64,000 bases of DNA, taken from NCBI GenBank assembly GCA_024875585.1, contig GCA_024875585.1_4107.1. One strand, 5' to 3'. Below, piece after piece: positions 622-12,221 of this stretch. Both the position numbers and the translations under genes were made by a program. Position 1 is the stretch's first letter; the number at the start of each line of letters is the position of its first letter. The notes beneath the pieces were generated by a model. That model did no database searches and was not told where the DNA came from. It saw nothing but the letters and a program-made list of their open reading frames with translations. Source of the stretch: a phage.

Positions 622-642
622 GGGGAGAAAATGGTTCTCCCC
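622..642 (+). promoter_or_regulatory. 5' leader hairpin (GGGGAGAA-loop-TTCTCCCC)
   Basis: perfect 8-bp inverted repeat between promoter and SD; same structure in >10 leaders with compensatory changes. Confidence 0.6.
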
Positions 643-660
643 ACTAAGAGGAAACTAAAA

Positions 661-804
661 ATGAAAACTTGTCAATGTGGTAAAAAATCTATTACTGGTT
701 TGAAACGGGGCGTTTCACTTTGCCAGTACCATTATAATTTACAAGTATGGGGTAAAGAATGGGCCGACCAGGTTGAAGCATCAAAGAAAGCAAAAAGTAA
801 GTAA
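661..804 (+). CDS. hypothetical small Cys-containing protein (47 aa)
   Basis: ATG after SD AAGAGGAAA; MKTCQCGKK...; below track cutoff. Confidence 0.55.
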   Translation: MKTCQCGKKSITGLKRGVSLCQYHYNLQVWGKEWADQVEASKKAKSK

Positions 805-823
805 AATTATTATCACAGTACTA

Positions 824-852
824 TTGACATAGATTGATAGTACTGGCATAAT
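824..852 (+). promoter_or_regulatory. sigma70-type promoter, class III (TTGACA-N17-CATAAT inside CAGTACTA/TAGTACTG palindrome)
   Basis: TTGACA 824-829, CATAAT 847-852; flanked by inverted AGTACT hexamers. Confidence 0.6.
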
Positions 853-885
853 AGATTTTATCAAGACAACTAAGAGGAAATTAAA

Positions 886-1098
886 ATGGCTATCATTATT
901 AAAAACAAAGTTAATAAGACTATCGTTAAACTGGCAGAAGTGAAAGAAGGTTATAAAGTATCTTGGGAGGGTTTTTATCGGACGTTTACTGATATTGACG
1001 ATGCAATCAATTACTACACTGATACGGTTAAAAACTTTGTTCGTGCTGATGTGGTTATGGCAGTGGCAACATATAAAGCATCAAAAGAAAGTAAGTAA
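886..1098 (+). CDS. hypothetical protein (70 aa); paralog of 3841..4020
   Basis: ORF, SD AAGAGGAAA; N-terminus MAII shared with 3841 ORF. Confidence 0.7.
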   Translation: MAIIIKNKVNKTIVKLAEVKEGYKVSWEGFYRTFTDIDDAINYYTDTVKNFVRADVVMAVATYKASKESK

Positions 1099-1118
1099 AA
1101 AATATTATCACAGTACTA

Positions 1119-1147
1119 TTGACATAGATTGATAGTACTGGCATAAT
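1119..1147 (+). promoter_or_regulatory. sigma70-type promoter, class III (second copy)
   Basis: near-identical to 806-870 module. Confidence 0.6.
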
Positions 1148-1180
1148 AGATTTTATCAAGACAACTAAGAGGAAATTAAA

Positions 1181-1525
1181 ATGGCTAACATCAATACTAT
1201 AGCAGCACAAAATATCAACCTGTCTTCTGTTGAAGTTGTACACATTGCCGCCCGGCGTTGGTTCCAGGCGTCTTATGGTAATACGTATTTCTCTTTAACG
1301 GTAGATGTTGAAATCAATGGCGAATTTATTGAAGTAGTAAACGTGCCGTTCCAATATGGCTACGGGGATCATTTTGACACTGTAGCAATGGAAGAATTAA
1401 GCAAGGTTATTAATATGGAAGGTAAAGAGTTTTTACGCGGTTCTTATCTTTCCCGTTTTTGCCGTGATAATAATATTACTGTTTATAGTTCTGTTAGTGA
1501 TGTTAAACGCAAAAAAGATCTTTAA
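1181..1525 (+). CDS. hypothetical protein (114 aa); paralog of 7222..7545
   Basis: ORF+SD; shares YGYG core and C-terminal VKRKKD with 7222 ORF. Confidence 0.7.
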   Translation: MANINTIAAQNINLSSVEVVHIAARRWFQASYGNTYFSLTVDVEINGEFIEVVNVPFQYGYGDHFDTVAMEELSKVINMEGKEFLRGSYLSRFCRDNNITVYSSVSDVKRKKDL

Positions 1526-1539
1526 TTAGCTTTACTTTA

Positions 1540-1566
1540 TGCAGATACTTTGATACAGTGTCTGCA
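1540..1566 (+). repeat. inverted repeat TGCAGATACTT...CAGTGTCTGCA
   Basis: ~10-bp stem with one wobble; no T-tract, so regulatory/processing site rather than clear terminator. Confidence 0.35.
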
Positions 1567-1605
1567 TAGGGGAAAGAAATTAAATCAACTTAAGAGGATA
1601 GTAAA

Positions 1606-1875
1606 ATGAAAAATATCAGTACTTTAATCGATGCAGGTACACATGTTCGTCGGTCTATGGTTGCAACCAGTTCTACAAAACAAGTAGCGAGCGGTTATCT
1701 TGTATTTGTGCACGATGGTAAACTCCTGGAACGTTCAATCAATTTTGATGTTAAAAACAATTGCCGTTTTATTATCTTTAAGCGTGAGCAATATAAAATT
1801 GATTTACCAGCGAAGCCCATTAGTGGGGCGTACAACGTTCAATCATTGTTTGAGCGTCAACCATACACCTATTAA
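1606..1875 (+). CDS. hypothetical protein (89 aa)
   Basis: ORF with SD AAGAGGATAG. Confidence 0.65.
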   Translation: MKNISTLIDAGTHVRRSMVATSSTKQVASGYLVFVHDGKLLERSINFDVKNNCRFIIFKREQYKIDLPAKPISGAYNVQSLFERQPYTY

Positions 1876-1926
1876 TCAAAACAACGTTAGCGGTCGATTT
1901 AGGCCGCTTATACTGGGGATTATATA

Positions 1927-2199
1927 ATGAATACTAATCAAGTACTGAATGAGATTGAAAGCATCATTAAACCGATGAAGCGTACTGATGCTATGTTAAC
2001 ACCGGAAGAATGCCGCCTTTATGAGCGTTACAGCGTCGAACAAGTCCAGGCAATGGCTATGGCTACCCCAGCCGTTAAACAGCCTGAGAACGCGTTACAG
2101 GACGTTACAGGGGATTATATCATCAATCCAGTACTAGGGAAGATGGAAGCAATCACCGAAGAACAAAAAGACTACTTAAGCCAGTACTTAAAAGGTTAA
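1927..2199 (+). CDS. hypothetical protein (90 aa)
   Basis: ORF; weak SD. Confidence 0.55.
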   Translation: MNTNQVLNEIESIIKPMKRTDAMLTPEECRLYERYSVEQVQAMAMATPAVKQPENALQDVTGDYIINPVLGKMEAITEEQKDYLSQYLKG

Positions 2200-2204
2200 T
2201 TAAT

Positions 2205-2414
2205 ATGCTTACTGTACAGGATAAGATCGACATCTTAAAGGTTAATATGTATGTGATTGATGCAGATCCTGAAAAAGTATTTGCATACGATGATTCTAAT
2301 CGTAGTCCTTTTTATTGTAGTCATGTAGTTGGATATGTGCCGTTATCGTATGTTATCGAAAGAGTGGTTGATTCAGCATACAAACATTTTTTAGAAAATA
2401 GTACTTGCAATTAG
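2205..2414 (+). CDS. hypothetical protein (69 aa)
   Basis: ORF 5 nt after previous stop; SD AAAGG. Confidence 0.55.
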   Translation: MLTVQDKIDILKVNMYVIDADPEKVFAYDDSNRSPFYCSHVVGYVPLSYVIERVVDSAYKHFLENSTCN

Positions 2415-2432
2415 TTTTTAGTACTGTATAAT
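2405..2432 (+). promoter_or_regulatory. sigma70-type promoter, class I
   Basis: TTGCAA / TATAAT; followed by leader hairpin 2446-2464. Confidence 0.6.
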
Positions 2433-2482
2433 GTTTTACATGAAGGGGGGAAATGATTCTCCCCAATAACAGGAGAAACAAA

Positions 2483-2635
2483 ATGAAACAATACAACGCT
2501 CGGTTTGATGTTACTATCGGCAACGGCAAAGGTCAATTCTCTTTCAGTACTCGTAAGAGTTATACAGAAAACTTCTTGCGTAATTGTGCACTGACCGCCG
2601 CACAAATTAAACATTATTTTCAGGCTAAAAAATGA
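2483..2635 (+). CDS. hypothetical protein (50 aa)
   Basis: start moved from track 2453 (ATG inside leader hairpin) to ATG after SD AGGAGAAACA. Confidence 0.6.
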   Translation: MKQYNARFDVTIGNGKGQFSFSTRKSYTENFLRNCALTAAQIKHYFQAKK

Positions 2636-2721
2636 AATCATTAGCTTATTATAGCTCGGCCCTGGTCGGTGCATTGATCGCGGCATTGTTAGTAGCTTAT
2701 CTATTCTTTATGGTGATTTAA
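2632..2721 (+). CDS. small hydrophobic membrane peptide (29 aa)
   Basis: ATGA stop/start overlap; MKSLAYYSSALVGALIAALLVAYLFFMVI. Confidence 0.45.
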   Translation: MKSLAYYSSALVGALIAALLVAYLFFMVI

Positions 2722-2859
2722 ATGAATCCTAACGGTATAATTTACAGTACTCCTAAAACGAAAGCAGATAAAGCGGAAGCACGTAAAGCGAAAGTAAAGG
2801 AGTACATCAAGCAAGGTATGACACGAAAGGCGGCGATTCTAAAAGCTAAAAATAAATGA
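2722..2859 (+). CDS. small basic protein (45 aa)
   Basis: ATG one nt after previous stop; Lys/Ala-rich. Confidence 0.45.
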   Translation: MNPNGIIYSTPKTKADKAEARKAKVKEYIKQGMTRKAAILKAKNK

Positions 2860-2955
2860 AAAAAAGTGGTTGACTTCGGTCAGCCATTTTGCTATTATAT
2901 ATTCATTGAGAGATAGCTCACTAGCCCACAGGGTGCGGGAGTGTATCTATTATAT
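2860..2955 (+). repeat. repeated intergenic element copy 1 (terminator hairpin + embedded TTGACT-N17-TATTAT + conserved tail)
   Basis: ~95-bp sequence repeated at 6270, 9275, 11565; hairpin GGTTGAC-TTCG-GTCAGCC then T-run. Confidence 0.65.
2867..2890 (+). terminator. rho-independent terminator
   Basis: stem GGTTGAC/GTCAGCC, TTCG loop, ATTTTG tail. Confidence 0.6.
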
Positions 2956-3002
2956 AAGTATTGAGTACTGAAAACTATTTTAAAAGTACATGTAGAAAGT
3001 AC

Positions 3003-3030
3003 TTGTAAACTATGTTTAAAGGCGTATAAT
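3003..3030 (+). promoter_or_regulatory. sigma70-type promoter, class I
   Basis: TTGTAA / TATAAT; leader hairpin GGGAAACGGTTTCCC follows. Confidence 0.55.
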
Positions 3031-3082
3031 GTTTTACATCGAGAGCGGGAAACGGTTTCCCCTAGTAATAAGGAATAAAATC

Positions 3083-3424
3083 ATGACTATTGCAATTGTA
3101 CAATCTAACTTTGAAAACGAAATCATCGCCCAAGCACTGCGTTTAAATGATGGTCGGGCCGAAATTAATTACGGTTTCAATTCAGGCGGTTGTGAAAAAT
3201 ATCAGTACTTTATAACTGCTGATGGCGGTGTCCTGGGTATTAATACAGTTATTGTAAACATTCAGAAAATTAATTTCAATGATCCAGACGATAGCCAGTT
3301 TTACATTGTAGGCGTAGACGTGAACTATGAGGATGACTCACTAACTGATGATTACACTGGCGAGAAGTTAGAAAGTGCATACGGTGAAGATGATTATCAG
3401 TCAGTACCGGAAGATTTTGAATAA
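3083..3424 (+). CDS. hypothetical acidic protein (113 aa)
   Basis: start moved from track 3029 to ATG after SD AAGGAATAAAATC. Confidence 0.65.
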   Translation: MTIAIVQSNFENEIIAQALRLNDGRAEINYGFNSGGCEKYQYFITADGGVLGINTVIVNIQKINFNDPDDSQFYIVGVDVNYEDDSLTDDYTGEKLESAYGEDDYQSVPEDFE

Positions 3425-3438
3425 TATTAAAAAATAGT

Positions 3439-3466
3439 TTGACAATAGATTATAGTACTGTATAAT
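3439..3466 (+). promoter_or_regulatory. sigma70-type promoter (TTGACA-N16-TATAAT)
   Basis: TTGACA 3439-3444, TATAAT 3461-3466. Confidence 0.6.
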
Positions 3467-3485
3467 AGTTTACATCAAGGGCGAC

Positions 3486-3528
3486 GGGAAGTTTTAAAAA
3501 CTTCCCTATAGGGAGAATAGTTCTCCCC
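3486..3528 (+). promoter_or_regulatory. tandem 5' leader hairpins (GGGAAGTTT-TAAAA-AACTTCCC and GGGAGAA-TAG-TTCTCCC)
   Basis: two perfect inverted repeats in leader; same pair at 5580-5623 and 9763-9804. Confidence 0.6.
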
Positions 3529-3548
3529 ACTAACAGAGAGAAAACAAA

Positions 3549-3761
3549 ATGGCTAATATCTGCACTGTACTGAAAAATGCAAAACAAGTTTTATTTTCTG
3601 ATCACGATCATTTAAACAAGGATATTACTGGCGTTCGGAATATCAAAGATGTAAAACGTGTTATGGGTATCTATTGCAATATGAAACGTGTCGGCACGTT
3701 CGGTAATAAATTTCTATACCAGGCGGGGGATTACAATTTTACACTGACTATCATTAACTAA
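3549..3761 (+). CDS. hypothetical protein (70 aa)
   Basis: ORF+SD after structured leader. Confidence 0.7.
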   Translation: MANICTVLKNAKQVLFSDHDHLNKDITGVRNIKDVKRVMGIYCNMKRVGTFGNKFLYQAGDYNFTLTIIN

Positions 3762-3780
3762 AAATATTATCACAGTACTA

Positions 3781-3809
3781 TTGACATAGATTGATAGTAC
3801 TGGCATAAT
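3781..3809 (+). promoter_or_regulatory. sigma70-type promoter, class III (third copy)
   Basis: TTGACA 3781-3786, CATAAT 3804-3809. Confidence 0.6.
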
Positions 3810-3840
3810 AGATTTTATTAAAACAACTGAGGAAATTAAA

Positions 3841-4020
3841 ATGGCTATCATCGCAAAAACTGAAATCATCGGCCTGGATTCTATCATCATGACGTTTGAA
3901 GATCAAAAAGGTATGTATGTAGTTTCCTATGGTGATTATGTTCGGGAGTATGAAACGGTAGACGAAGCCTTTGAAAGTTACATTCGCCAGGTGAATAAAG
4001 CATACGACGATTACCGCTAA
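3841..4020 (+). CDS. hypothetical protein (59 aa); paralog of 886..1098
   Basis: ATG after SD GAGGAAATTAAA; below track cutoff. Confidence 0.6.
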   Translation: MAIIAKTEIIGLDSIIMTFEDQKGMYVVSYGDYVREYETVDEAFESYIRQVNKAYDDYR

Positions 4021-4047
4021 AATATATTACCAGTACTATCAAAGCTA

Positions 4048-4075
4048 TTGACAACGTTTGATAGTACTGTATAAT
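4048..4075 (+). promoter_or_regulatory. sigma70-type promoter (TTGACA-N16-TATAAT)
   Basis: TTGACA 4048-4053, TATAAT 4070-4075. Confidence 0.55.
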
Positions 4076-4121
4076 AAGTTTTATCAACTGTAGTTAACTT
4101 AACAAAAGAGAGAGAAACAAA

Positions 4122-4265
4122 ATGATCGCACTGGATTCATTCATCGATGCAGTTCTGGCAAAAACTGGCGAGGATCTGACCGCAGAACAATACGCAATGA
4201 TCGAGCAATGCCAGCAAGACGGTAAATCGGTGAAAGATACTGTTAAGATTATCCGCAAGATGTAA
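4122..4265 (+). CDS. hypothetical small acidic protein (47 aa)
   Basis: ATG after SD AAGAGAGAGA; below cutoff; hairpin follows. Confidence 0.55.
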   Translation: MIALDSFIDAVLAKTGEDLTAEQYAMIEQCQQDGKSVKDTVKIIRKM

Positions 4266-4371
4266 GATTATAAGCCCATTAGTTAACGCTGGTGGGCTTT
4301 AATCATTTACCCTATACAATGCCAGTACTAAACCGTTTATCTCGTTAGAATGCATTACAGGACGTTTGACA

Positions 4372-4569
4372 ATGATTAGCATGAAATCAGTACAAAAACA
4401 AATAGAAACATTATCAAAAATTAAACGTAAACAGTACTCATTAGAATATAATATCAATGGTAACTATCATCTAATGAAAGAGAATAATTTTATCGTCATT
4501 GATGAATCATTGCAAATTATTAGTATAGTACTGAAAGCATTAATTAATGATAGAAAAAGGTTAAAATAA
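4372..4569 (+). CDS. hypothetical protein (65 aa)
   Basis: track ORF starts at TTG 4366; first ATG used; start uncertain. Confidence 0.4.
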   Translation: MISMKSVQKQIETLSKIKRKQYSLEYNINGNYHLMKENNFIVIDESLQIISIVLKALINDRKRLK

Positions 4570-4826
4570 TGGCAGTAGGATTCGCGAAAGATGGAGCCGA
4601 GCAAGATGAGATTAACGCAGTTATTCAAGCCGCCGTTAACCACGCTAGAAAGCAAATTAACGCACAAATAGAATCACTGATACATTGCCTCGACTGCGGC
4701 GATAAAATCCCTGAGAATCGCCGACAGGCTGTTAAGGGATGTAAGTACTGCATAACCTGCCAGGAAGATCATGATAGTACTTTTAAAAGAGATCCGCGTA
4801 ATTGTTGGCATAGATCTATGAGATAA
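4569..4826 (+). CDS. DksA/TraR-family C4 zinc-finger protein
   Basis: CLDCGDKIPENRRQAV-x5-CITCQ, the CxxC-x17-CxxC spacing of TraR/DksA proteins. Confidence 0.65.
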   Translation: MAVGFAKDGAEQDEINAVIQAAVNHARKQINAQIESLIHCLDCGDKIPENRRQAVKGCKYCITCQEDHDSTFKRDPRNCWHRSMR

Positions 4827-4833
4827 AAAGTAA

Positions 4834-4861
4834 TTGACAGTACTGAAAGATAGTGTATAAT
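4834..4861 (+). promoter_or_regulatory. sigma70-type promoter
   Basis: TTGACA 4834-4839, TATAAT 4856-4861. Confidence 0.55.
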
Positions 4862-4890
4862 GTTTTATATCTTAACTGAGGATAGAAATC

Positions 4891-5247
4891 ATGGGAATAC
4901 AACATATCACGCGGACCACTGACAATGGCGAGATCACTGGTTATCAAGTACAGGGCAAAGTAGCACAATTGCAGTACTGGTTTGTTAAACGTGGAATCAT
5001 TGCACCGGATCTTGATTATGACCGTGTAGCGTTTATTGATTCTCTTTATGTTGATCCTGATAGTCGGGGCAATGGTGAAGGTAACGAATTAATGAATGCC
5101 TTTATTGATGCTGCCGATGATTCAGATTGTATCATTTTAGAATGCGATACGGGAGAAGATAACGCCTTCAATCTTAAAGAATGGTACGAAGGTTTCGGAT
5201 TCGAAGTACTGATCGATAGTGAATATCCTATCATGATTTTATCATAG
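4891..5247 (+). CDS. GNAT-family N-acetyltransferase (putative)
   Basis: FIDSLYVDPDSRGNGEGNELMNAFID resembles GNAT motif A (acetyl-CoA binding loop). Confidence 0.5.
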   Translation: MGIQHITRTTDNGEITGYQVQGKVAQLQYWFVKRGIIAPDLDYDRVAFIDSLYVDPDSRGNGEGNELMNAFIDAADDSDCIILECDTGEDNAFNLKEWYEGFGFEVLIDSEYPIMILS

Positions 5248-5261
5248 TACTAAAAAAGTAA

Positions 5262-5289
5262 TTGACAGTACTATCAGATAGTGTATAAT
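5262..5289 (+). promoter_or_regulatory. sigma70-type promoter
   Basis: TTGACA / TATAAT; leader hairpin GGGGAAACATCTTCCCC 5302-5318. Confidence 0.55.
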
Positions 5290-5330
5290 GTTTTACATAG
5301 AGGGGAAACATCTTCCCCTACTAAGAGGAA

Positions 5331-5525
5331 ATGAAAATGGAAAAATTATCAAGTATTTTAGTACAAGATGATTTTGGTAATCCTGGAAGTGCTATCATTG
5401 TTCGGGGTAATAAAGCAACGTTTGTTATTGCTGGTGGACCTGTACAGCGTAGCATTAAAAACAATGCTGTTACTATTAATAATGTACGCTATCGCTTAGA
5501 TAAAGAATTGATTCATAAACTTTAA
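5331..5525 (+). CDS. hypothetical protein (64 aa)
   Basis: ORF+SD TAAGAGG. Confidence 0.65.
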   Translation: MKMEKLSSILVQDDFGNPGSAIIVRGNKATFVIAGGPVQRSIKNNAVTINNVRYRLDKELIHKL

Positions 5526-5532
5526 AAAGTAC

Positions 5533-5560
5533 TTGCAATTAGTTTTTAGTACTGTATAAT
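5533..5560 (+). promoter_or_regulatory. sigma70-type promoter, class I
   Basis: TTGCAA / TATAAT; two leader hairpins 5580-5623. Confidence 0.6.
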
Positions 5561-5640
5561 AGTTTACATGAAAGGCAACGGGAAGTTTAAAAACTTCCCT
5601 AAAGGGGGAAATGATTCTCCCCACTAAGAGGAAAGAAAAA

Positions 5641-5853
5641 ATGCAAGGTCAACTAATCGTTCGTAAATGGTCTGATACTAATGAAAAACCGTGGGATGTA
5701 CAATACATCGGACCGGATGGGGTATCACGTTATCAGCCAGGCGTAACGCATAGTACTGAGCAATATGCCGCCGCTCATCGTGAACGCCTGTTAGAATCTA
5801 TGCAACAGGGTTTAGGTGAAAAATTCATTCAAGATCATTGGCTGAAAGATTAA
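5641..5853 (+). CDS. hypothetical protein (70 aa)
   Basis: start moved from 5611 (inside hairpin) to ATG after SD AAGAGGAAAG. Confidence 0.65.
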   Translation: MQGQLIVRKWSDTNEKPWDVQYIGPDGVSRYQPGVTHSTEQYAAAHRERLLESMQQGLGEKFIQDHWLKD

Positions 5854-5860
5854 AAAGTAC

Positions 5861-5888
5861 TTGTGTAGTATAGAAAATAAAGTATAAT
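5861..5888 (+). promoter_or_regulatory. sigma70-type promoter, class I
   Basis: TTGTGT / TATAAT; leader hairpin 5902-5918. Confidence 0.55.
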
Positions 5889-5939
5889 GTTTAATACAGG
5901 AAGGGGAATAGTTCCCCTCCTAACAAAAAGGAAAGTAAC

Positions 5940-6952: not shown

Positions 6953-7135
6953 ATGGCTAAGTGCACTATCTGTAAGAAAGAAATCGTATTAGTTCCAAGT
7001 GCCCGTGAGCGTGCCGCTCGGTTCGGTGGCAAAGCGTCAGACTATACAAAAATGTTTACTACTCATGCAAATTGCCAGGTAGCAAAACGTTCACAAGAAA
7101 GCGTAGAATTAATGCGTAAACTTTCCAAAAAATAA
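6953..7135 (+). CDS. small Cys-containing protein (60 aa), possible zinc-binding
   Basis: start moved from 6911; MAKCTICKK...HANCQ. Confidence 0.6.
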   Translation: MAKCTICKKEIVLVPSARERAARFGGKASDYTKMFTTHANCQVAKRSQESVELMRKLSKK

Positions 7136-7138
7136 GTA

Positions 7139-7166
7139 TTGACAAAGTATCTTAGTACTGTATAAT
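7139..7166 (+). promoter_or_regulatory. sigma70-type promoter, class IV (second copy)
   Basis: near-identical to 6868-6900; leader hairpin 7181-7200. Confidence 0.6.
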
Positions 7167-7221
7167 AGTTTACATCAAGTGAGGGGAAACGGTTCCCCTC
7201 CTAACAAAGAGAGAAATAAAA

Positions 7222-7545
7222 ATGACTATGATCCTTGCCCAGAAAGTAGAACTGAAAATTGTAACTTCCTTTGACATTAAAGTTAATCGCTGGACTGATC
7301 GGAACGGTAATACTTACCACTCTTGCTACGTGTCTGCATTGATTGGTGATCGTTGGGAAGACTTGGGACACGAAACCTTTACATACGGTTATGGTACGCA
7401 AGGCGAATACACTGGTTTGGAGATCATTAAAGAAACCGTTATAGGTTTCAACCCGAAAGAAAAAGTTATTCACCGCATCGAAAAAGAGATTAACAAAGAA
7501 ATAACAGTTCGCTACTACGATGTAAAACGTAAGAAAGACATGTAA
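7222..7545 (+). CDS. hypothetical protein (107 aa); paralog of 1181..1525
   Basis: ORF+SD; FTYGYG and C-terminal VKRKKD shared. Confidence 0.7.
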   Translation: MTMILAQKVELKIVTSFDIKVNRWTDRNGNTYHSCYVSALIGDRWEDLGHETFTYGYGTQGEYTGLEIIKETVIGFNPKEKVIHRIEKEINKEITVRYYDVKRKKDM

Positions 7546-7567
7546 TAGAATCCATTTAAAGTACTAT

Positions 7568-7596
7568 TTGACATTACACAGATAGTACTTTATAAT
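7568..7596 (+). promoter_or_regulatory. sigma70-type promoter
   Basis: TTGACA-N17-TATAAT. Confidence 0.55.
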
Positions 7597-7640
7597 AGAC
7601 TCTAACTTGTAGTACTAACTTAACTAATAGGATGTATACC

Positions 7641-8036
7641 ATGATTACTAAATTCTACGCTACCCGTGAAGCTGCCCGTATTGTTGCACGCGAGGAAGGA
7701 GCGGCATTTAAAGACATGGGCAAAGATGCACCGAAAGGCCAACGCTGGAGCGTACAGTTCAAAGAAATCTCTGATATTGTGAATTCACCTGAACCAGTAC
7801 TGACAGCAGCAGAACAGAAGAAAGCTGATGAACTGGCGGCAATTCTTAACGCTCAAGATGAATTCGTCGAGGGTGCTGATATCCAGGTTGTAGTAAATTC
7901 GAATGCATGGACTCACGCGGATCATCTGGCTAACCTGAAGCGTCCAAGCGTACTGATTCGCAACCAGAAAGAGATCCGTCATGACCGTAAGGGTAATCGT
8001 GTAACAGTATACAGTAAACGCCGCCAGGTTATCTAA
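7641..8036 (+). CDS. hypothetical protein (131 aa), GC-richer than neighbours
   Basis: ORF; start ATG 7641 or 7632; host-like codon usage by eye. Confidence 0.6.
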   Translation: MITKFYATREAARIVAREEGAAFKDMGKDAPKGQRWSVQFKEISDIVNSPEPVLTAAEQKKADELAAILNAQDEFVEGADIQVVVNSNAWTHADHLANLKRPSVLIRNQKEIRHDRKGNRVTVYSKRRQVI

Positions 8037-8058
8037 TAACTTGCAGTTCTAACAACAC

Positions 8059-8083
8059 GGCGGGATCTGTTCCCGCCTTTTTT
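8059..8083 (+). terminator. rho-independent terminator
   Basis: GGCGGGA-TCTGT-TCCCGCC then TTTTTT. Confidence 0.75.
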
Positions 8084-8098
8084 ACAGGATAAACTAAA

Positions 8099-8353
8099 AT
8101 GATTAAGGTAAAACTATCTAAAGATAATATCTTGCGGGTACACTATAAAGCCCCTCAGAGAATCATCACAAAGGCCGTACAGCTTGCGAATGAGTTTATT
8201 AATGGTAATCTATTACCTAGGAAGTTAAGCAACGGAAAACTGCGTGTAATCGATGTAGACACTAACAACAGAATAGTAATAGAGAATACCGGAAAGATAA
8301 ACCTATATGAACACCAACAATATAATAAGAAAATAAAACTAATTAGTCGTTGA
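8099..8353 (+). CDS. hypothetical protein (84 aa)
   Basis: ORF+SD AGGATAAACTAAA. Confidence 0.65.
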   Translation: MIKVKLSKDNILRVHYKAPQRIITKAVQLANEFINGNLLPRKLSNGKLRVIDVDTNNRIVIENTGKINLYEHQQYNKKIKLISR

Positions 8354-8378
8354 CAGTACTCAAATGTTTTAGTACTAT
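8350..8378 (+). promoter_or_regulatory. sigma70-type promoter (TTGACAGTACTCAAAT...TACTAT)
   Basis: TTGACA-N17-TACTAT. Confidence 0.5.
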
Positions 8379-8407
8379 ATATCTATACCAACACGGAGAG
8401 AAACAAA

Positions 8408-8626
8408 ATGAAATTATCTAAAATCGAAAAGAAAACTATTGACGTAGCTATCCAACATGGTTACACATTTCGTAATGATTTACATTTTACCAATTTTCAA
8501 CAAGGGTATCGTACTATTAAAAAACTAATTGACAAAGGTTTATTAGTTAAAGTAGACAACGGCAACGGCGTTGAATATCAACCAACACAGGACGCATTTA
8601 ATTTTAAGAAATATAATATTATCTAA
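8408..8626 (+). CDS. hypothetical protein (72 aa)
   Basis: ORF+SD CGGAGAGAAACA. Confidence 0.65.
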   Translation: MKLSKIEKKTIDVAIQHGYTFRNDLHFTNFQQGYRTIKKLIDKGLLVKVDNGNGVEYQPTQDAFNFKKYNII

Positions 8627-8655
8627 TTGACAGTACTCAAATATTTTAGTACTAT
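8627..8655 (+). promoter_or_regulatory. sigma70-type promoter (copy of 8350 module)
   Basis: TTGACAGTACTCAAAT...TACTAT. Confidence 0.5.
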
Positions 8656-8682
8656 ATCTATACCAACACAGGAAAAAACAAA

Positions 8683-9267
8683 ATGCGTAATTATACTAAA
8701 TTCATCCGTACACTGTCAGAAATGGAAACCAACAAAGAGATCTTGACAGCTTGTCGGTTAGCTGGTCTGGAGATCATCGGTGCGGGGTCTTCCCGTATTG
8801 TATTCGCTTTAAATGATCGGTTAGTGATTAAGGTCGCGAATTGTGATGCAGGTGTAGAACAAAATGAAACAGAATGTAAAGTATGGAATTTTTTAGATTA
8901 TGACCGCCCTCAGTTGAAACAGTTCTTTGCTAAAGTACATATGCATTTAAGCGATCCTGATAATATGTTTATTGTTATGGATCGGTTGAGTACTGCAAGT
9001 AAAGGCAGTGTAAAGCACGTTAATGCGTGCAACGAATTAAAGTACAATATTAAACGTAATGCCATTGAACGCCAACACCGCTTTGCTGATGCACTACAAC
9101 ACGTAGATGATACATTATCAACACTAACGATTAGAGATATCAGAAAACAGAATATCGGCCAGGATCGAAATGGACTGATTAAAGTACTTGATTATGGTTT
9201 AACCCGCAATATCTGGAATCAGTACTATAAAAAGCGTGATGTAGCAGCAAGTAAGGTAACACGATAA
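8683..9267 (+). CDS. putative protein kinase-like protein (194 aa)
   Basis: IGAGSSRIVF...VIKVA (Gly-loop + Lys), RDIRKQNIG (catalytic-loop-like), LDYGL (DFG-like); from memory, unverified. Confidence 0.4.
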   Translation: MRNYTKFIRTLSEMETNKEILTACRLAGLEIIGAGSSRIVFALNDRLVIKVANCDAGVEQNETECKVWNFLDYDRPQLKQFFAKVHMHLSDPDNMFIVMDRLSTASKGSVKHVNACNELKYNIKRNAIERQHRFADALQHVDDTLSTLTIRDIRKQNIGQDRNGLIKVLDYGLTRNIWNQYYKKRDVAASKVTR

Positions 9268-9274
9268 AAAAGAT

Positions 9275-9372
9275 TAAAAAAGGGATTGACTCCGGTCAGT
9301 CCCTTTGCTATTATATATTCATTGAGAGATAACTCACTGACCCATAGGGTGCGGGAGTGTATCTATTATATA
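9275..9372 (+). repeat. repeated intergenic element copy 3
   Basis: hairpin GGGATTGAC-TCCG-GTCAGTCCC + conserved tail. Confidence 0.65.
9282..9307 (+). terminator. rho-independent terminator
   Basis: stem + TTTG. Confidence 0.55.
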
Positions 9373-9407
9373 AGTATTGAGTACTGAAAACTATTTTTAA
9401 AAAGTAC

Positions 9408-9435
9408 TTGCAATGTACTTAGAATCAAGTATAAT
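9408..9435 (+). promoter_or_regulatory. sigma70-type promoter, class I
   Basis: TTGCAA / TATAAT; leader hairpin 9450-9468. Confidence 0.6.
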
Positions 9436-9489
9436 GTTTTATATCGAGAGGGGGAAATGGTTCTCCCCAATACAATAAGGAATAAAATC

Positions 9490-9711
9490 ATGACTACAAT
9501 GACTTGCATTTACGCTTCCAATCTTCTGAATGATGCGGCCTTTAATGTTGATTCAGAATATCAATGTTATCGGGATGAAAATAAAAAAGTTTTTGTAGTT
9601 GATAATAATGGTTTCCATATTGAATTGCAATCCGGCTTCACTGGCGTTGATGGTAAATCAGTATGGGGCGTACAGGATGATAAAGGTACATATCATTTTA
9701 AACGTAATTAA
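9490..9711 (+). CDS. hypothetical protein (73 aa)
   Basis: start moved from 9457 to ATG after SD TAAGGAATAAAATC. Confidence 0.65.
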   Translation: MTTMTCIYASNLLNDAAFNVDSEYQCYRDENKKVFVVDNNGFHIELQSGFTGVDGKSVWGVQDDKGTYHFKRN

Positions 9712-9714
9712 GTA

Positions 9715-9742
9715 TTGACAAAGTATCTTAGTACTGTATAAT
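9715..9742 (+). promoter_or_regulatory. sigma70-type promoter, class IV
   Basis: TTGACA / TATAAT; two leader hairpins 9763-9804. Confidence 0.6.
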
Positions 9743-9826
9743 AGTTTACATCAAGGGCAACGGGAAGTTTTTAAAACTTCCCTATAGGGAGAATAGATCT
9801 CCCCGATACTAAAAGGAAACAAAAAT

Positions 9827-10099
9827 ATGTCTAGCTACTCCGCTACTATGATCATTAAAGATATGAACGGTAATCCTACTGCTGCTGGTGGATCATTTGG
9901 AAACATTAACTTAGATGGTCGGTTAACCATGCAATCAGCCATCAATGCAGCGAAAGAAGTTTTTAAGAATGAATGCACTGTAAGTAAGCTGGATTATATG
10001 GGATTCGCTATCGAGAAAACTAATCGTTTTGTGAACTACAAAAATCCACTGATGATTGATACCAACCTGAAAGCTAACGAAGTGGAATACTTATTATGA
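9827..10099 (+). CDS. hypothetical protein (90 aa)
   Basis: ORF+SD AAAAGGAAACA. Confidence 0.7.
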   Translation: MSSYSATMIIKDMNGNPTAAGGSFGNINLDGRLTMQSAINAAKEVFKNECTVSKLDYMGFAIEKTNRFVNYKNPLMIDTNLKANEVEYLL

Positions 10100-10287
10100 C
10101 AGTTGAAGAAGTTAAAAAAGTACTGGCAGTTCTACGCTATCATAATCATTGCAAGGTGAAGAATGATCCTGATTATCTTGATTCATCCCTTGAGGAAGAC
10201 ACATTAAACGCAATAAGCTATATGCAAACATTATTAAAACGTATGACCGAAAAGAATAGACCGGACTATATCGGAAATAAAATTTAA
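10096..10287 (+). CDS. hypothetical protein (63 aa)
   Basis: ATGA overlap with upstream gene. Confidence 0.55.
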   Translation: MTVEEVKKVLAVLRYHNHCKVKNDPDYLDSSLEEDTLNAISYMQTLLKRMTEKNRPDYIGNKI

Positions 10288-10294
10288 AAAGTAC

Positions 10295-10322
10295 TTGCAT
10301 TGTAGTTAGATTAACGTATAAT
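10295..10322 (+). promoter_or_regulatory. sigma70-type promoter, class I
   Basis: TTGCAT / TATAAT; leader hairpin 10337-10353. Confidence 0.6.
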
Positions 10323-10373
10323 GTTTTATATCGAGAGGGGAAATGGTTTCCCCTCAAGTCCAGGAGATACACA

Positions 10374-10637
10374 ATGAACACTATCGAAATCACTATCAAT
10401 GCTCACGTATACGACAACGTAGTACTGCAAACTACTATGACCGCTAATGATACCAGAACTTTGCGGAATACTGTTATAAGTGCCGTATGTGCTGCAATTG
10501 GTGATGTATCCCTGGAAAATGCAGAACATATCAACAACGGTTTCACTATGTGCAAACGTGATAACGCAAAACATATCATCGTAGAAGGTTACGGCGGTGT
10601 AGAATATAATCTTTATATGAAAAAAGTACTTGCATAG
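10374..10637 (+). CDS. hypothetical protein (87 aa)
   Basis: ORF+SD CAGGAGATACACA. Confidence 0.7.
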   Translation: MNTIEITINAHVYDNVVLQTTMTANDTRTLRNTVISAVCAAIGDVSLENAEHINNGFTMCKRDNAKHIIVEGYGGVEYNLYMKKVLA

Positions 10638-10657
10638 TAACTAAAACAAAGTATAAT
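10629..10657 (+). promoter_or_regulatory. sigma70-type promoter, class I (overlaps 3' end of previous CDS)
   Basis: TTGCAT / TATAAT; leader hairpin GGGGGAG-ATATC-CTCCCCC. Confidence 0.55.
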
Positions 10658-10704
10658 GTTTTGCATAGGGGGAGATATCCTCCCCCACTAAAAGGAGTAC
10701 TAAA

Positions 10705-10929
10705 ATGGCTAACTTTGATGAACTGATGCGGGAAGTAGCTACCCTGGCAGAAGAGAAGAAATCATTTGATTCTATCTATAACACCTCTTACCGTGATTCA
10801 GTACTGGCATGTAACCAGGATCAAAAAGATGAACTAATCGCCACCTATCATGAAGCGTGGAAGTATTACCGCCAATGGGAGAAAGAAGAAAGTGAGTCTA
10901 CCATTGACGGCCTCAATAATCTAATCTAA
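10705..10929 (+). CDS. hypothetical acidic protein (74 aa)
   Basis: ORF+SD AAAAGGAGTAC. Confidence 0.7.
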   Translation: MANFDELMREVATLAEEKKSFDSIYNTSYRDSVLACNQDQKDELIATYHEAWKYYRQWEKEESESTIDGLNNLI

Positions 10930-10947
10930 AGTTTTATTTCAGTACTA

Positions 10948-10976
10948 TTGACATAGATTGATAGTACTGATATGAT
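10948..10976 (+). promoter_or_regulatory. sigma70-type promoter, class III variant
   Basis: TTGACATAGATTGATAGTACTGA-TATGAT. Confidence 0.55.
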
Positions 10977-11004
10977 AACTTTACTAACTACAAGGGGAAA
11001 CATC

Positions 11005-11262
11005 ATGGAACAATTCACACAATATCGGGTAAATCCTCAAGCTATGGCATACGTAGAAGACCATAAAACGTTACCAGTACAAACACCAATTAAAGGCCAT
11101 ATCTATCGTGCAATGTCATGGAATCCGGCCCAGGATGGCTATAAAACCGTAGCCGTGGGTATGTACTGCGGTAATGGTGAATGGTTTGATCCTAACAATC
11201 CGATTGCACTTGATAGTACTGAAAAAATGAAATGGGCCGACTACATCGAAGATATTTCATAA
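11005..11262 (+). CDS. hypothetical protein (85 aa)
   Basis: start moved from 10972 to ATG after SD CAAGGGGAAACATC. Confidence 0.6.
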   Translation: MEQFTQYRVNPQAMAYVEDHKTLPVQTPIKGHIYRAMSWNPAQDGYKTVAVGMYCGNGEWFDPNNPIALDSTEKMKWADYIEDIS

Positions 11263-11268
11263 AAATTA

Positions 11269-11297
11269 TTTGACAGTACTAACCAGTAATGTATAAT
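11269..11297 (+). promoter_or_regulatory. sigma70-type promoter
   Basis: TTGACA-N17-TATAAT; leader hairpin with covarying GCGGGGG/CTCCCGC. Confidence 0.6.
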
Positions 11298-11352
11298 GTT
11301 TTACATAGAGCGGGGGAATAGTTCTCCCGCCAATAGTTTGGAGTAAAACATT

Positions 11353-11553
11353 ATGTCTATCGCTATCGCCCTGGTCGAAGTACTGAAAGAAGCTAAAGCC
11401 AACCTTATCGATGTACAGATTAAGGAATTGCAAAATGGCTTAATCGGCTGTACTTGTACCGCTGGTGGCCCGTCAGACTATCGGGAATTCGAATCACTTG
11501 AATCGATGGTCCGTTATCTTACAATCATCGTAGAAGATTGGAGAATCATCTAA
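11353..11553 (+). CDS. hypothetical protein (66 aa)
   Basis: ORF+SD TTTGGAGTAAAACATT. Confidence 0.65.
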   Translation: MSIAIALVEVLKEAKANLIDVQIKELQNGLIGCTCTAGGPSDYREFESLESMVRYLTIIVEDWRII

Positions 11554-11564
11554 CAAAAAAAAAG

Positions 11565-11660
11565 AATAAAAAGGGATTGACTCCGGTCAGTCCCTTTGCT
11601 ATTATATACGCATAGACAAAAACTAGCCCACAGGGTGCATAGGTGTATCTAAAATATATA
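11565..11660 (+). repeat. repeated intergenic element copy 4 (diverged tail)
   Basis: same hairpin as copy 3; downstream half partly diverged. Confidence 0.55.
11573..11598 (+). terminator. rho-independent terminator
   Basis: GGGATTGAC-TCCG-GTCAGTCCC + TTTG. Confidence 0.55.
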
Positions 11661-11716
11661 GTTAATAACGGTGAGTAACCATCTGCTGGTGGAGTGAAAA
11701 CTATTAATAAAAAGTA

Positions 11717-11746
11717 TTGACAAAGTATATCAGTACTGCAATAATG
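11717..11746 (+). promoter_or_regulatory. sigma70-type promoter
   Basis: TTGACA, AGTACTG, A/T-rich -10. Confidence 0.45.
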
Positions 11747-11799
11747 TATCTCGTAGGGCGGCAATGGTGCGACGGCCCACAAAGTTAGGAGATACACAA

Positions 11800-12132
11800 A
11801 TGAGTACTTCAATCGCTATCGTTAAAGCTTTCATCCGTACCAACGTTTCATCTGTATTCATTGACGGATTGGATCGGGAAGTAGAATACTCAATCATTAT
11901 CGCACAAACGGCAAACGGTGCTCGGTACATCCTTAATGATAGTGAAGCAAATCACTACTACTTCACTAAAGCCACTGGCTTTAAACGCATCGATGCTGAT
12001 GTAGTATACGCTAAGATGAATAAGCTGGTAGATAAGATTAACACTAAAGGTACTATCGATTTACAGTACTGGACCGAAACCGATCCAGAATATGGATCTC
12101 ACCGCTACCTGAATCCAGGTATTAAAATGTAA
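11800..12132 (+). CDS. hypothetical protein (110 aa)
   Basis: start moved from 11764 to ATG after SD TTAGGAGATACACAA. Confidence 0.65.
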   Translation: MSTSIAIVKAFIRTNVSSVFIDGLDREVEYSIIIAQTANGARYILNDSEANHYYFTKATGFKRIDADVVYAKMNKLVDKINTKGTIDLQYWTETDPEYGSHRYLNPGIKM

Positions 12133-12138
12133 AAAGTA

Positions 12139-12167
12139 CTTGTGTAGCACTTAGATTTAAGTATAAT
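12139..12167 (+). promoter_or_regulatory. sigma70-type promoter, class I
   Basis: TTGTGT / TATAAT; leader hairpin 12182-12200. Confidence 0.6.
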
Positions 12168-12221
12168 GTTTTTCATAGAGAGGGGGAAATGGTTCTCCCT
12201 CATAAATTAAGGAGTTTTATC

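Follow-up and report, generated by a model that had tools for sequence, protein, structure and literature searches.

Promoter-linked leader hairpins in the ORFan-rich terminal repeat of a PBECO4-like jumbo coliphage

Promoter-hairpin cassettes of the terminal repeat

The window analyzed here, a stretch of 64,000 nucleotides, comes from an Asteriusvirus, i.e. a PBECO4/121Q-like jumbo coliphage. Small ORFan genes are densely packed from position 1 to about 13 kb. This immediate-early region (1..13050, + strand) corresponds to the right-hand part of a direct terminal repeat of ~21 kb, its boundary near 13050 being placed by colinearity with phage vB_Ec-M-J (repeat annotated at 1-21525). About 15 tiny genes of the repeat, all of them ORFans, each possess a strong host-type promoter and a short, G-rich hairpin in the leader. 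They are probably expressed early; terminal-repeat DNA with host-type sigma-70 promoters would presumably be the first DNA read by the host polymerase.

Between 622 and 12201, 15 hairpins of the type GGGGRGAA-loop-TTCYCCCC were found. A preliminary description had reported such hairpins between the -10 box and the SD of at least a dozen genes, and all those it quoted were recovered as placed. Each hairpin starts 9-16 nt past the -10 box of a near-consensus sigma-70 promoter and ends 17-22 nt before the start codon (15/15 in both cases). A looser pattern (GGGRRA1-3 N2-6 T1-3YYCCC) matched 15 loci on the + strand of positions 1-13000 and none in the remaining 51 kb (13001-64000), while dinucleotide shuffling of these 13 kb (300 replicates) yielded a mean of 0.02 matches and a maximum of 2.

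The hairpin belongs to a repeated cassette of ~100 bp, composed of an A-rich upstream tract, TTGACA or TTGCAA, a 16-bp spacer, TATAAT, 'gttttacat' as initial sequence, the hairpin, a spacer rich in A, and finally SD and ATG. The cassette promoters match the consensus at 10-12 of 12 positions. In the first cassette (582..663, + strand like all others) the -35 box at 582-587 and the -10 box at 604-609 precede the hairpin GGGGAGAAaatggTTCTCCCC at 622-642, the SD and the ATG at 661; its leader folds with an MFE of -13.8, leaving the SD unpaired. The second (2405..2485) has its -10 box at 2427-2432, a hairpin with one G·U pair at 2445-2464 (GGGGGGAAatgaTTCTCCCC) and the ATG at 2483. The weakest copy (z -0.15) is the 6-bp hairpin GGGAAAcggTTTCCC at 3047-3061, located between the -10 box at 3025-3030 and the ATG at 3083 of cassette 3003..3085. 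Further copies are found at 5262..5339 (-10 box 5284-5289, hairpin 5301-5319, GGGGAAacatcTTCCCC; AGGGGAAacatcTTCCCCT, ATG 5337), at 5861..5942 (-10 box 5883-5888, hairpin 5902-5918, extendable to 5898-5921 and reading GGGGAAtggTTCCCC with the outer pairs, ATG 5940) and at 6871..6955 (-10 box 6893-6898, hairpin 6913-6931, GAGGGGAAtggTTCCCCTC, again GGGGAAtggTTCCCC with the outer pairs, ATG 6953). They are followed by cassettes 7139..7224 (-10 box 7161-7166, hairpin 7181-7200, ATG 7222) and 9408..9492 (-10 box 9430-9435, hairpin 9450-9467 with a G·U pair, ATG 9490). The last four occupy 10295..10376 (-10 box 10317-10322, hairpin 10335-10355, GAGGGGAAAtggTTTCCCCTC, ATG 10374), 10630..10707 (-10 box 10652-10657, hairpin 10668-10686, GGGGGAGatatcCTCCCCC, ATG 10705), 11270..11355 (-10 box 11292-11297, hairpin 11310-11330, GCGGGGGAAtagTTCTCCCGC, with a G·U pair, ATG 11353) and 12140..12224 (-10 box 12162-12167, hairpin 12180-12201, ATG 12222).

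Three leaders carry a second hairpin, as had been described. This extra hairpin, GGGAAGTTT..AAACTTCCC, lies upstream of the main one at 3486-3506 in cassette 3439..3551 (-10 box 3461-3466, main hairpin 3511-3527, ATG 3549), at 5580-5599 in cassette 5533..5643 (-10 box 5555-5560, main hairpin 5604-5621, ATG 5641) and at 9762-9782 in cassette 9715..9829 (-10 box 9737-9742, main hairpin 9787-9803, ATG 9827). It is a lineage-specific insertion of ~30 bp, with three copies in this phage and one in ph0011, and is absent from G17, vB_Ec-M-J, PBECO4 and the 121Q stretches examined. No covariation was detected in it.

The main stems are G-C-rich and comprise 7-9 bp. Folding of the leaders gave hairpins with a dG of -12 to -16 kcal/mol and a dG of about 0 for the hairpin-less leaders of the region. 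SD and AUG stay unpaired in the folded hairpin leaders, and the ribosome-binding site is not masked. An identity as intrinsic terminators was rejected, as a T-run is missing after all 15 hairpins; terminators with a T-run lie elsewhere in the region. Open reading frames starting within the loop (MVLP/MILP N-termini) had been considered artefacts, and rightly so: many loops contain no ATG, and in the G17 orthologue of the hairpin at 622 a loop shortened by 1 nt shifts its ATG out of the reading frame of the real start. Leaders without structure follow approximately 12 of the 33 promoters of this region; hence, the hairpin is not obligatory. It is almost exclusive to one promoter class (16-bp spacer, perfect TATAAT), a link that could reflect shared cassette ancestry rather than function.

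Homology blocks between phages break at the cassettes, and 57 of 112 block ends are intergenic, intergenic DNA being 26% of the sequence. Because they are repeated and similar, the cassettes would also act as sites of homologous exchange, shuffling ORFans between phages. Such exchange has been proposed for the promoter-early stem-loop (PeSL) cassettes of T4-like phages (Arbiol et al. 2010, PMC2839356; Comeau et al. 2014, PMC4122927).

Selection on base pairing in the transcript

The hairpins are genuine, and selection acts on them. RNAalifold, applied to a plain MAFFT alignment, revealed double changes in 4 of the 5 core pairs, in agreement with the earlier proposal that compensatory changes maintain the stem. 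Among 107 distinct copies from five related phages, whose alignment is model-fitted and hence biased towards structure, double changes occurred in 9 of 10 stem pairs, and the covariation score was 0.318, compared to 0.173 in shuffles (0/500 reaching 0.318) and at most 0.219 in slid controls. Single alignment columns hold G-C, A-U, U-A and C-G pairs, for which several independent double changes are needed. Furthermore, orthologous leaders keep a hairpin while its sequence drifts.

A covariance model identified 127 copies in relatives, all of them on the gene strand. The 5' arm is purine-rich in 51 of 51 distinct hairpins (mean 90%), and internal mispairs are G·U in 15 cases versus A·C in 4, the G being in the 5' arm every time. 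Folding favors the + strand over its complement (64 versus 43 leaders, p = 0.003, with copies that are not independent). The purine-rich 5' arms together with mispairs of the G·U and not the A·C kind indicate that selection acts on the transcript.

That structure rather than sequence is kept had likewise been suggested, and a second genus bears this out. In Klebsiella phage Muenster, unrelated stems (GGAGATTCCAG/CTGGAATCTCC, GGGGATACA/TGTATCCCC and GGGAATGAA/TTCATTCCC) occupy the same position, their 5' arms containing fewer G runs; Salmonella phage Munch has related stems at that site. The position after the -10 box is thus conserved across genera, and a stem start of GGG, GGA or AGG with a purine-rich 5' arm is common to all three lineages. 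In four phages representing three lineages, the 40 nt that follow a strong promoter were enriched in stable structure (14/25, 25/40, 14/37 and 9/39, versus 1.4-3 in shuffles). Within Asteriusvirus the G4/C4 core is near invariant, 95 and 88 of the 107 copies having G-C at the two central pairs. This core and the strict purine-5'/pyrimidine-3' polarity exceed what a purely structural stabilizer needs.

Possible roles of the leader hairpins

By analogy with the 5' stem-loops of T7 gene 10, ompA and papA, we tentatively regard the hairpin as a cis-acting, sequence-nonspecific leader element that would increase the lifetime or yield of short early mRNAs, within promoter-leader cassettes that may also shuffle ORFans. 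The stem-loop would be transcribed, fold a few nucleotides from the mRNA 5' end and leave the ribosome-binding site single-stranded. The same may hold for the pieces left when read-through transcripts are cut within the AU-rich promoter stretch directly upstream. If sigma-70 spacing is as usual, the predicted start site is an A at nt 6 or 8 past the -10 box, and the predicted unpaired 5' overhang before the hairpin is 1-7 nt, most often 5; we infer this start-site position and any effect on stability or expression. Classical protection reportedly needs a stem no farther than about 2-4 nt from the end, according to the papers by Emory, Bouvet and Belasco. The predicted overhang would be long for 5'-end protection of this type and would weaken it. 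RNase E bound to a free 5' end easily bypasses a simple (orthogonal) stem-loop while scanning (PMC9943677). The T7 phi10 stem-loop placed before an SD raised expression 1.5-3-fold together with the mRNA level (PMC6146998).

It is unlikely that the hairpins instead attenuate or terminate transcription from upstream promoters, insulating each small gene, which is the role assigned to the PeSL stem-loop. Canonical terminators are few among these tandem genes, and in RB49 the PeSL211/210 stem-loop lowered lacZ expression as much as rrnB T1 (PMC2839356; PMC4122927). The lack of a T-run in all 15 hairpins speaks against such a role; however, the RB49 stem-loop AGGGGATcacgtATCCCCT is also without one, so that the missing T-run is compatible with attenuation. 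Separate canonical terminators or terminator-promoter composites at 8059, 2863, 6270, 9279 and 11570 indicate that the phage has proper terminators where wanted. Moreover, nothing would tie an attenuator of upstream transcription to one position past the -10 box, yet the hairpins keep to one both here and in other genera, whereas the RB49 stem-loop is found at varied sites inside the promoter.

It is slightly less probable still that the hairpin tags this early mRNA class for recognition by a trans-acting factor of the phage or the host, such as a nuclease or a translational repressor acting in timed shut-off, an antitermination factor (lambda boxB, HK022 put) or one that shields against phage-induced RNA decay. 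Both the near-invariant core and the stem starts and purine-rich arms shared by three lineages go beyond pairing needs, and the restriction of the hairpin to some of the early genes would set these apart as a regulatory class. T4 RegB has GGAG in early leaders as its target and is blocked by secondary structure. The conserved core is nevertheless explicable by recent copying among paralogous cassettes, the Muenster stems are unrelated and a conserved boxA-like partner was not found. A binding site for a phage factor had been put forward earlier; the loop-specific kind is unlikely because the 51 distinct hairpins carry 26 different loops.

We consider it improbable that a purine-rich initial transcribed sequence was selected for efficient escape at promoters of very strong consensus type, and that the 3' arm then evolved as a mask that hides the SD-like GGAG/GGGG run and prevents ribosome trapping or starts at a loop AUG. 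Purine-rich initial sequences favor escape at T5 N25. The invariably 5' purine-rich arm spans about +6 to +13 of these near-perfect promoters, and with a loop ATG it forms a perfect SD-spacer-AUG that is picked up by gene callers. However, equally strong promoters of the region have A/U-rich unstructured leaders, and G runs are fewer in Muenster. Even less credit is due to a functionless passenger, i.e. a small palindromic insertion spread among paralogous cassettes by gene conversion. The extra hairpin, ~30 bp in size, patchy among phages and without covariation, fits this description, but pairing in the main hairpin survives many independent double changes, orthologous leaders retain it despite drift, and another genus has an unrelated stem set at the same position.

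A cruciform or palindromic DNA site for a recombinase, resolvase or repressor is highly improbable: homology-block ends cluster at the cassettes and the PeSL authors suggested GGGG...CCCC motifs as a possible recombination target (PMC2839356; PMC4122927), but homology over the whole cassette can explain the breakpoints, a cruciform gives no reason for the arm polarity or for G·T mispairs with G always in the same arm, all copies have one orientation relative to transcription, and a dimeric DNA-binding protein would conserve sequence where compensatory changes preserve pairing.

Comparison with known systems

With intrinsic (Rho-independent) terminators the hairpins share a G-C-rich stem of 7-9 bp and a short loop; unlike them, they have no T-run and are flanked by a promoter upstream and a gene downstream. 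Lambda nut boxB and HK022 put are also small hairpins in early phage transcript leaders made by host RNA polymerase, and put is a tandem pair, as in the three leaders with two hairpins. However, conservation covers the loop in boxB, which also has boxA as its partner, and the two-stem sequences in put, while the loops here vary freely without a conserved boxA. Since each gene has its own promoter, long-range antitermination would find little to act on.

The stabilizing leader stem-loop favored here has its models in T7 gene 10, ompA and papA, where a short hairpin rich in G-C stands close to the 5' end, the A/U-rich stretch after it is unstructured, the SD is free, and any pairing sequence is tolerated. 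An almost superimposable structure is the T7 phi10 leader GGGAGACCacaacGGUUUCCC, with a stem of 8 bp, a purine-rich 5' arm, a loop of 5 nt and a dG of about -16, although its stem starts at +1 and not, as predicted here, 1-7 nt (mode 5) in. Such a leader occurs once in T7; the present element is multicopy and tied to promoters.

As a whole, the cassettes resemble those already described in T4-like phages. Akin to PeSLs, they combine a strong sigma-70-type early promoter and an A/T-rich upstream tract with an adjacent stem-loop, usually GGGG...CCCC with occasional G-T pairs, followed by the SD and ATG of a small ORFan; many copies populate a hyperplastic region, and differences between phages begin or end at the cassettes. 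Even the hairpin-less promoters (TTGACA-17-CATAAT...atcaagaca) resemble RB49 early promoters (...CATAATacacccatcaagacga). The RB49 stem-loop, however, lies between the -35 box and the -10 box or across the latter, e.g. ttgacAGGGGATcacgtATCCCCTatact, and being inside the promoter it is transcribed only from upstream promoters. The hairpins described here always begin 9-16 nt past the -10 box, within the gene's own leader, a position conserved across genera, and they belong to a Rak2-like jumbo phage lineage, where the cassettes lie in a ~21 kb terminal repeat.

Hairpin cassettes in the terminal repeat

Positions 1-12600 of the window were compared with phage genomes by megablast, which yielded 145 matching records. 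Most were Escherichia jumbo phages of the genus Asteriusvirus, including PBECO4, 121Q, G17, vB_Ec-M-J and ph0011, at 90-96% identity; these relatives cover just 36-64% of the query, in many pieces. Ten Campylobacter phage records also appeared among the matches. The counterpart DNA of vB_Ec-M-J lies within its annotated direct terminal repeat of 21,525 bp, and terminal repeats of 20.7-21.5 kb are described for Sharanji, fEgEco12 and vB_Ec-M-J (PhageTerm; for fEgEco12 also restriction mapping). Colinearity with vB_Ec-M-J places the end of the repeat at about 13,050 in the window. The first 13 kb carry approximately 40 small genes on the + strand, annotated in relatives almost entirely as hypothetical. 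Ten hairpin-led genes gave no Pfam family above threshold, and no tRNAs were found in the window. A kinase encoded in the terminal repeat of the Klebsiella phage Muenster (Alcyoneusvirus) is 37% identical to that of the window. Just past the repeat, from 13121 to 14166 and beyond, tandem ORFs of ~65-75 aa overlap at ATGA and are mutual paralogues (13277-13378 and 13674-13775 are 77% identical); vB_Ec-M-J has a comparable run of ~18 such small genes.

Direct reading of the sequence and a mechanical hairpin scan recovered every hairpin example quoted in the preliminary description. Hairpins of the type GGGGRGAA-loop-TTCYCCCC occur 15 times between 622 and 12201, on the + strand. A loose pattern likewise found 15 loci in 1-13000 and none in the other 51 kb, the mean in dinucleotide shuffles being 0.02. 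Upstream of each hairpin is a promoter with TTGACA or TTGCAA, a 16 bp spacer and TATAAT. The hairpin starts 9-16 nt after the -10 box (mode nt 13), has a stem of 6-9 bp and ends 17-22 nt before an ATG with its own SD. When the leaders were folded from the predicted start to the AUG, one hairpin was obtained, with -12 to -16 kcal/mol and z of about -2 to -3; the copy at 3047 folds weakly. SD and AUG were unpaired in all 15 leaders, and hairpin-less leaders had a dG of about 0. In four phages, structure was found in the 40 nt after strong promoters in 14/25, 25/40, 14/37 and 9/39 cases, compared with 1.4-3 in shuffled leaders, so that stable structure after the promoter is enriched in all four.

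A unit of ~100 bp is repeated, and the hairpin is one of its modules. Read directly, hairpin-bearing leaders (catcaa, then the stem GGGGAGAA..TTCTCCCC, then actaagaggaaa) and hairpin-less leaders (atcaagacaactaagaggaaa) differ as if by insertion. The promoters match 10-12 of the 12 consensus positions and have AAAAAGT tracts upstream. Two classes were distinguished. Class 1 has a 16-bp spacer and a perfect TATAAT, usually with a hairpin; class 2 has a 17-bp spacer, a TG-extended imperfect -10 box (CATAAT or GATAAT), the start region atcaagaca and an unstructured leader. Around 33 good promoters lie in the first 13 kb, 15 with a hairpin and ~12 with unstructured leaders, the remainder driving non-coding units. 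The leader of the gene at 11800 (11740-11802) carries a different, imperfect hairpin (GGGCGGCaatggtgcgacGGCCC) behind a promoter with a 17-bp spacer; this hairpin is kept in G17, vB_Ec-M-J, PBECO4 and ph0011. The palindrome AGTACT occurs 200 times in the window, compared with 21 copies expected from base composition and far above other 6-bp palindromes, with several GC-rich palindromes being absent. The first 13 kb account for 76 of its copies, which frequently occupy promoter spacers (tAGTACTgTATAAT) or overlap the -35 box (AAAAAGTACTTGCAA); the palindrome is common within genes as well.

Several hairpins have an ATG in the loop, downstream of the SD-like 5' arm, and in five of six cases it is in frame with the true start; ORF lists consequently begin with MVLP or MILP. 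These starts had been treated as artefacts, and the view holds: ATG is missing from many loops (tag, cgg, cac, acatc), and in the G17 orthologue of the 622 hairpin the loop is one base shorter, which puts the loop ATG out of frame. Real N-terminal extensions were thus rejected, given the ATG-free loops and a frame that is not kept in orthologues.

IMG/VR was scanned by pattern, and the only multi-copy match was 121Q, the other matches being single. The single matches include an unrelated phage group with one leader in which TTGACA-17-TATAAT is followed by GGGGAGAA..TTCTCCCC, a T-run and a gene starting GTGAGTTT (loci L005, L014, L015, L021, L025-L029, L031, L032). To judge from its sequence, this leader looks like an attenuator that shares the motif by sequence only.

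Base pairing and the level of action

In a plain MAFFT alignment the arms of hairpins with unequal loop lengths fell out of register, and an alignment to a covariance model, derived from 20 cassettes, was used for this reason. The model found 127 copies across the window, G17, vB_Ec-M-J, PBECO4, ph0011, 121Q, Munch and Muenster, all 127 on the gene strand and all in early or terminal-repeat regions. Changes on both sides were seen in nine of the ten modelled pairs (107 distinct copies, model-fitted alignment). The covariation score was 0.318; shuffles gave 0.173 (0/500 reach the observed score), and sliding the 3' partner gave no more than 0.219. These figures are not probabilities, since the copies are related to each other and the model-fitted alignment is biased in favor of the modelled structure. 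The covariance check proposed in the preliminary description, run with RNAalifold on the ordinary MAFFT alignment, gave double changes in four of five core pairs. G-C, A-U, U-A and C-G all occur within single columns, which requires several independent events.

Hairpins of Muenster follow the same kind of promoter at the same distance, with stems of unrelated sequence: GGAGATTCCAG/CTGGAATCTCC, GGGGATACA/TGTATCCCC, GGGAATGAA/TTCATTCCC and GGGGCAA/TTGCCCC. The Salmonella phage Munch has a hairpin set of its own. Such cross-genus hairpins of unrelated sequence are the strongest evidence for selection on structure. Together with the covariation, the Muenster stems uphold the earlier proposal that structure rather than sequence is maintained.

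Several features point to an action of the hairpin in the transcript. Besides its constant orientation, the 5' arm is purine-rich in 51 of 51 distinct hairpins (mean 90% purine) and the reverse is never seen. Internal mispairs are G.U in 15 cases and A.C in four, with the G always in the 5' arm, although many of the G.U mispairs belong to one GGGGGAA/TTCTCCC variant and so represent few independent events. Finally, folding is better for the + strand than for its complement. Neither orientation, arm polarity, G.U bias nor strand folding would be expected of a cruciform or a dimeric DNA-binding site, so the transcript is favored; a DNA palindrome or operator is disfavored by the G.U to A.C asymmetry and the arm polarity.

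Other identities were rejected. None of the 15 hairpins is followed by a T-run or figures among the terminator-like sites of the + strand, which speaks against intrinsic terminators; real terminators (8059-8077) and terminator-promoter composites occur nearby. SD masking, a thermometer or a riboswitch does not fit, with SD and AUG free in every fold and no Rfam match, an Rfam scan of 1-14000 at E up to 1 having returned none. The stems are too short for an RNase III site (6-9 bp compared with about 20 bp of double-stranded RNA). A lambda boxB/nut-type site was dismissed on the 26 different loops among 51 hairpins; a boxA-like partner was also sought, and the alignment contained no conserved flanking box.

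Cassette exchange and further candidate RNAs

When the first 13 kb were compared with four relatives by local blastn, 112 ends of homology blocks were obtained, 57 of them in intergenic cassettes; such cassettes account for 26% of the sequence, and the genomes compared are not independent. Several ends match hairpin borders exactly, with homology interrupted from 3481 to 3511, from 5572 to 5602 and from 9757 to 9787. These gaps coincide with an additional stem-loop, 5' of the main hairpin, which had been noticed in three leaders and which the hairpin scan located on the + strand at 3486-3506, 5580-5599 and 9762-9782 (GGGAAGTTT..AAACTTCCC). The gaps identify this second hairpin as an insertion of ~30 bp. 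It occurs three times in the window, only in leaders sharing one promoter variant, and once in ph0011, and is absent from G17, vB_Ec-M-J, PBECO4 and the stretches of 121Q that were compared. No covariation was detected in the second hairpin, which may be a passenger spread among similar leaders. It is flanked on both sides by GG(G), which could reflect a short target duplication or leader gene conversion. Among orthologous genes the leader may hold a single hairpin or two, and the hairpins may belong to different sub-families, as expected under cassette recombination.

Two further elements of the repeat were observed. A composite terminator-promoter unit is present in four copies (2863-2960, 6270-6370, 9279-9375 and 11570-11665). 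It consists of a terminator-like hairpin containing the -35 box (AAAGGGATTGACtccgGTCAGTCCCTTT), then TATTAT and a non-coding stretch of ~55 nt with the invariant core CCCAYNGGGTGC ... GTATCTAT. A small hairpin before the core covaries (GAG/CTC, GGC/GCC, GCA/TGC, ACCAC/GTGGT), and some copies have a distal complement (GCACCCGGTGGG). The unit is kept in Munch and Muenster at 4-6 copies per terminal repeat, and Rfam returned no match for it; a small RNA present in several copies and a protein-binding site are possible identities. In the relative PA5oct, two highly expressed ncRNAs are located within the terminal repeat. The second element, at 6436-6525, consists of a hairpin-type promoter and ~75 nt without an ORF, followed by the next promoter, and has a branched fold of -18.8 kcal/mol. 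Asteriusvirus, Munch and Muenster share a conserved loop UAAGNCAUACGAAAAA and, upstream, an AAGUAG, and the loop is closed by a covarying 4-bp stem (GGAG/CTCC, CCAG/CTGG, CCTG/CAGG). From its predicted fold, this element looks like an undescribed structured RNA.

Possible functions and relation to known stem-loops

We propose that the leader hairpin would act in cis, raising the lifetime or yield of short early mRNAs, and that the cassettes carrying it would double as recombination sites. Classical work on the 5' stem-loops of stable mRNAs is that of Emory, Bouvet and Belasco (1992) and Bricker and Belasco (1999). In the T7 record, the phi10 leader starts at +1 with GGGAGACCacaacGGUUUCCC; it folds into a hairpin of 8 bp whose 5' arm is rich in purines, and beyond the hairpin come an open A/U-rich stretch and the SD. 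Placed before an SD behind other promoters, the T7 stem-loop increased expression 1.5-3-fold and raised mRNA abundance (PMC6146998). As in stem-loops of the ompA/papA/T7 g10 type, pairing rather than sequence is required in the window hairpins, judging from the covariation and the Muenster stems.

The extent of protection would depend on the start site. We infer this to be the A at nt 6 or 8 of gttttAcAt, and the unpaired 5' overhang predicted from it is 1-7 nt (mode 5). Sigma-70 promoters usually start ~7 nt past the -10 box, at a purine. BsRppH requires just two or three unpaired nucleotides, and scanning RNase E easily bypasses an orthogonal stem-loop (PMC9943677); with overhangs of this length, protection would be partial unless the true start is nearer. 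The easy bypass contradicts a hairpin near the 5' end as a block to RNase E scanning, and our confidence in the stabilizer reading is lower because of it.

Among the rivals, attenuation of read-through transcription carries most weight, though we consider it unlikely. It corresponds to the proposal made for the promoter-early stem-loop (PeSL) cassettes of T4-like phages, whose authors suggest termination of upstream transcription together with modular shuffling, mini-circles having been demonstrated (PMC2839356; PMC4122927). The RB49 stem-loop for which termination is reported likewise lacks a T-run, so the missing T-run is insufficient to dismiss an attenuator role in the window. Second in weight, and a little harder to credit, is a recognition element for a trans-acting factor: strict arm polarity and a stem that begins with a conserved GGR would suit it, but the loops are free and the stems unrelated across genera. 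More doubtful again is that the hairpin is a self-marking tag of one immediate-early transcript class in Rak2-like jumbo phages. The stem-loop, with its G-rich 5' arm and at a fixed distance from the start site, would then be read by a phage or host factor that might spare these mRNAs from phage-induced decay or shut them off jointly at the end of the early period. The tag is considered because a passive stabilizer would need neither the strict arm polarity, nor the GGR stem start in three lineages, nor the confinement to a single class of promoter. Third among the weighted rivals, and in our view improbable, is that selection favors purines in the initial transcribed sequence and that the 3' arm masks an SD-like run; a DNA-level site and a functionless passenger are both very improbable.

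Genome papers on CBB, Sharanji, fEgEco12 and PA5oct, which describe promoters or terminal repeats, do not mention the hairpins. The terminal repeats of Rak2-like jumbo phages contain ~50 ORFan genes whose control was so far undescribed, and most of these genes sit in PeSL-like cassettes. Recognition of the cassettes corrects many wrong start codons, which arise because gene callers pick the ATG in the hairpin loop, and explains the mosaicism of the terminal repeat between phages. As compact and very strong promoter-leader-RBS units, the cassettes are of possible use in expression work. The finding helps annotation and offers a lead for experiments; it is modest and leaves the current understanding of mRNA control unchanged.

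PeSL cassettes consist of a strong sigma-70 early promoter joined to a stem-loop ('generally GGGG...CCCC') and are found upstream of ORFans in hyperplastic regions (PMC2839356; PMC4122927). In the window cassettes, likewise, a strong early promoter that is sigma-70-like is preceded by A/T-rich DNA and adjoined by a stable GGGG...CCCC stem-loop, a small ORFan lying in a variable region supplies the SD and ATG at the cassette end, and the cassettes serve as sites of exchange, insertion and deletion between related phages. The similarity of the class-2, hairpin-less promoters of the window to RB49 early promoters is close, extends to the initial transcribed sequence and suggests a common promoter heritage. 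Placement, however, differs. PeSL stem-loops lie within or over the promoter (most common), upstream of the -35 box, or just after the -10 box before the start site, whereas in the window cassettes the expected start site precedes the stem, which begins 9-16 nt past the -10 box; of the PeSL subclasses, the rare 'downstream of -10' one comes nearest. In the RB49 sequence, read directly, the stem-loop is between the -35 box and the -10 box (ttgacAGGGGATcacgtATCCCCTatact) or across the -10 box, and thus outside the gene's own transcript, while window hairpins are always downstream of the expected start site. The one real difference from PeSL is a stem-loop in the predicted transcript, its position kept across genera. 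The element is recognizably related to both PeSL cassettes and 5' leader stem-loops and carries the PeSL concept beyond T4-like phages into a distant lineage, with the stem-loop now in the predicted transcript.
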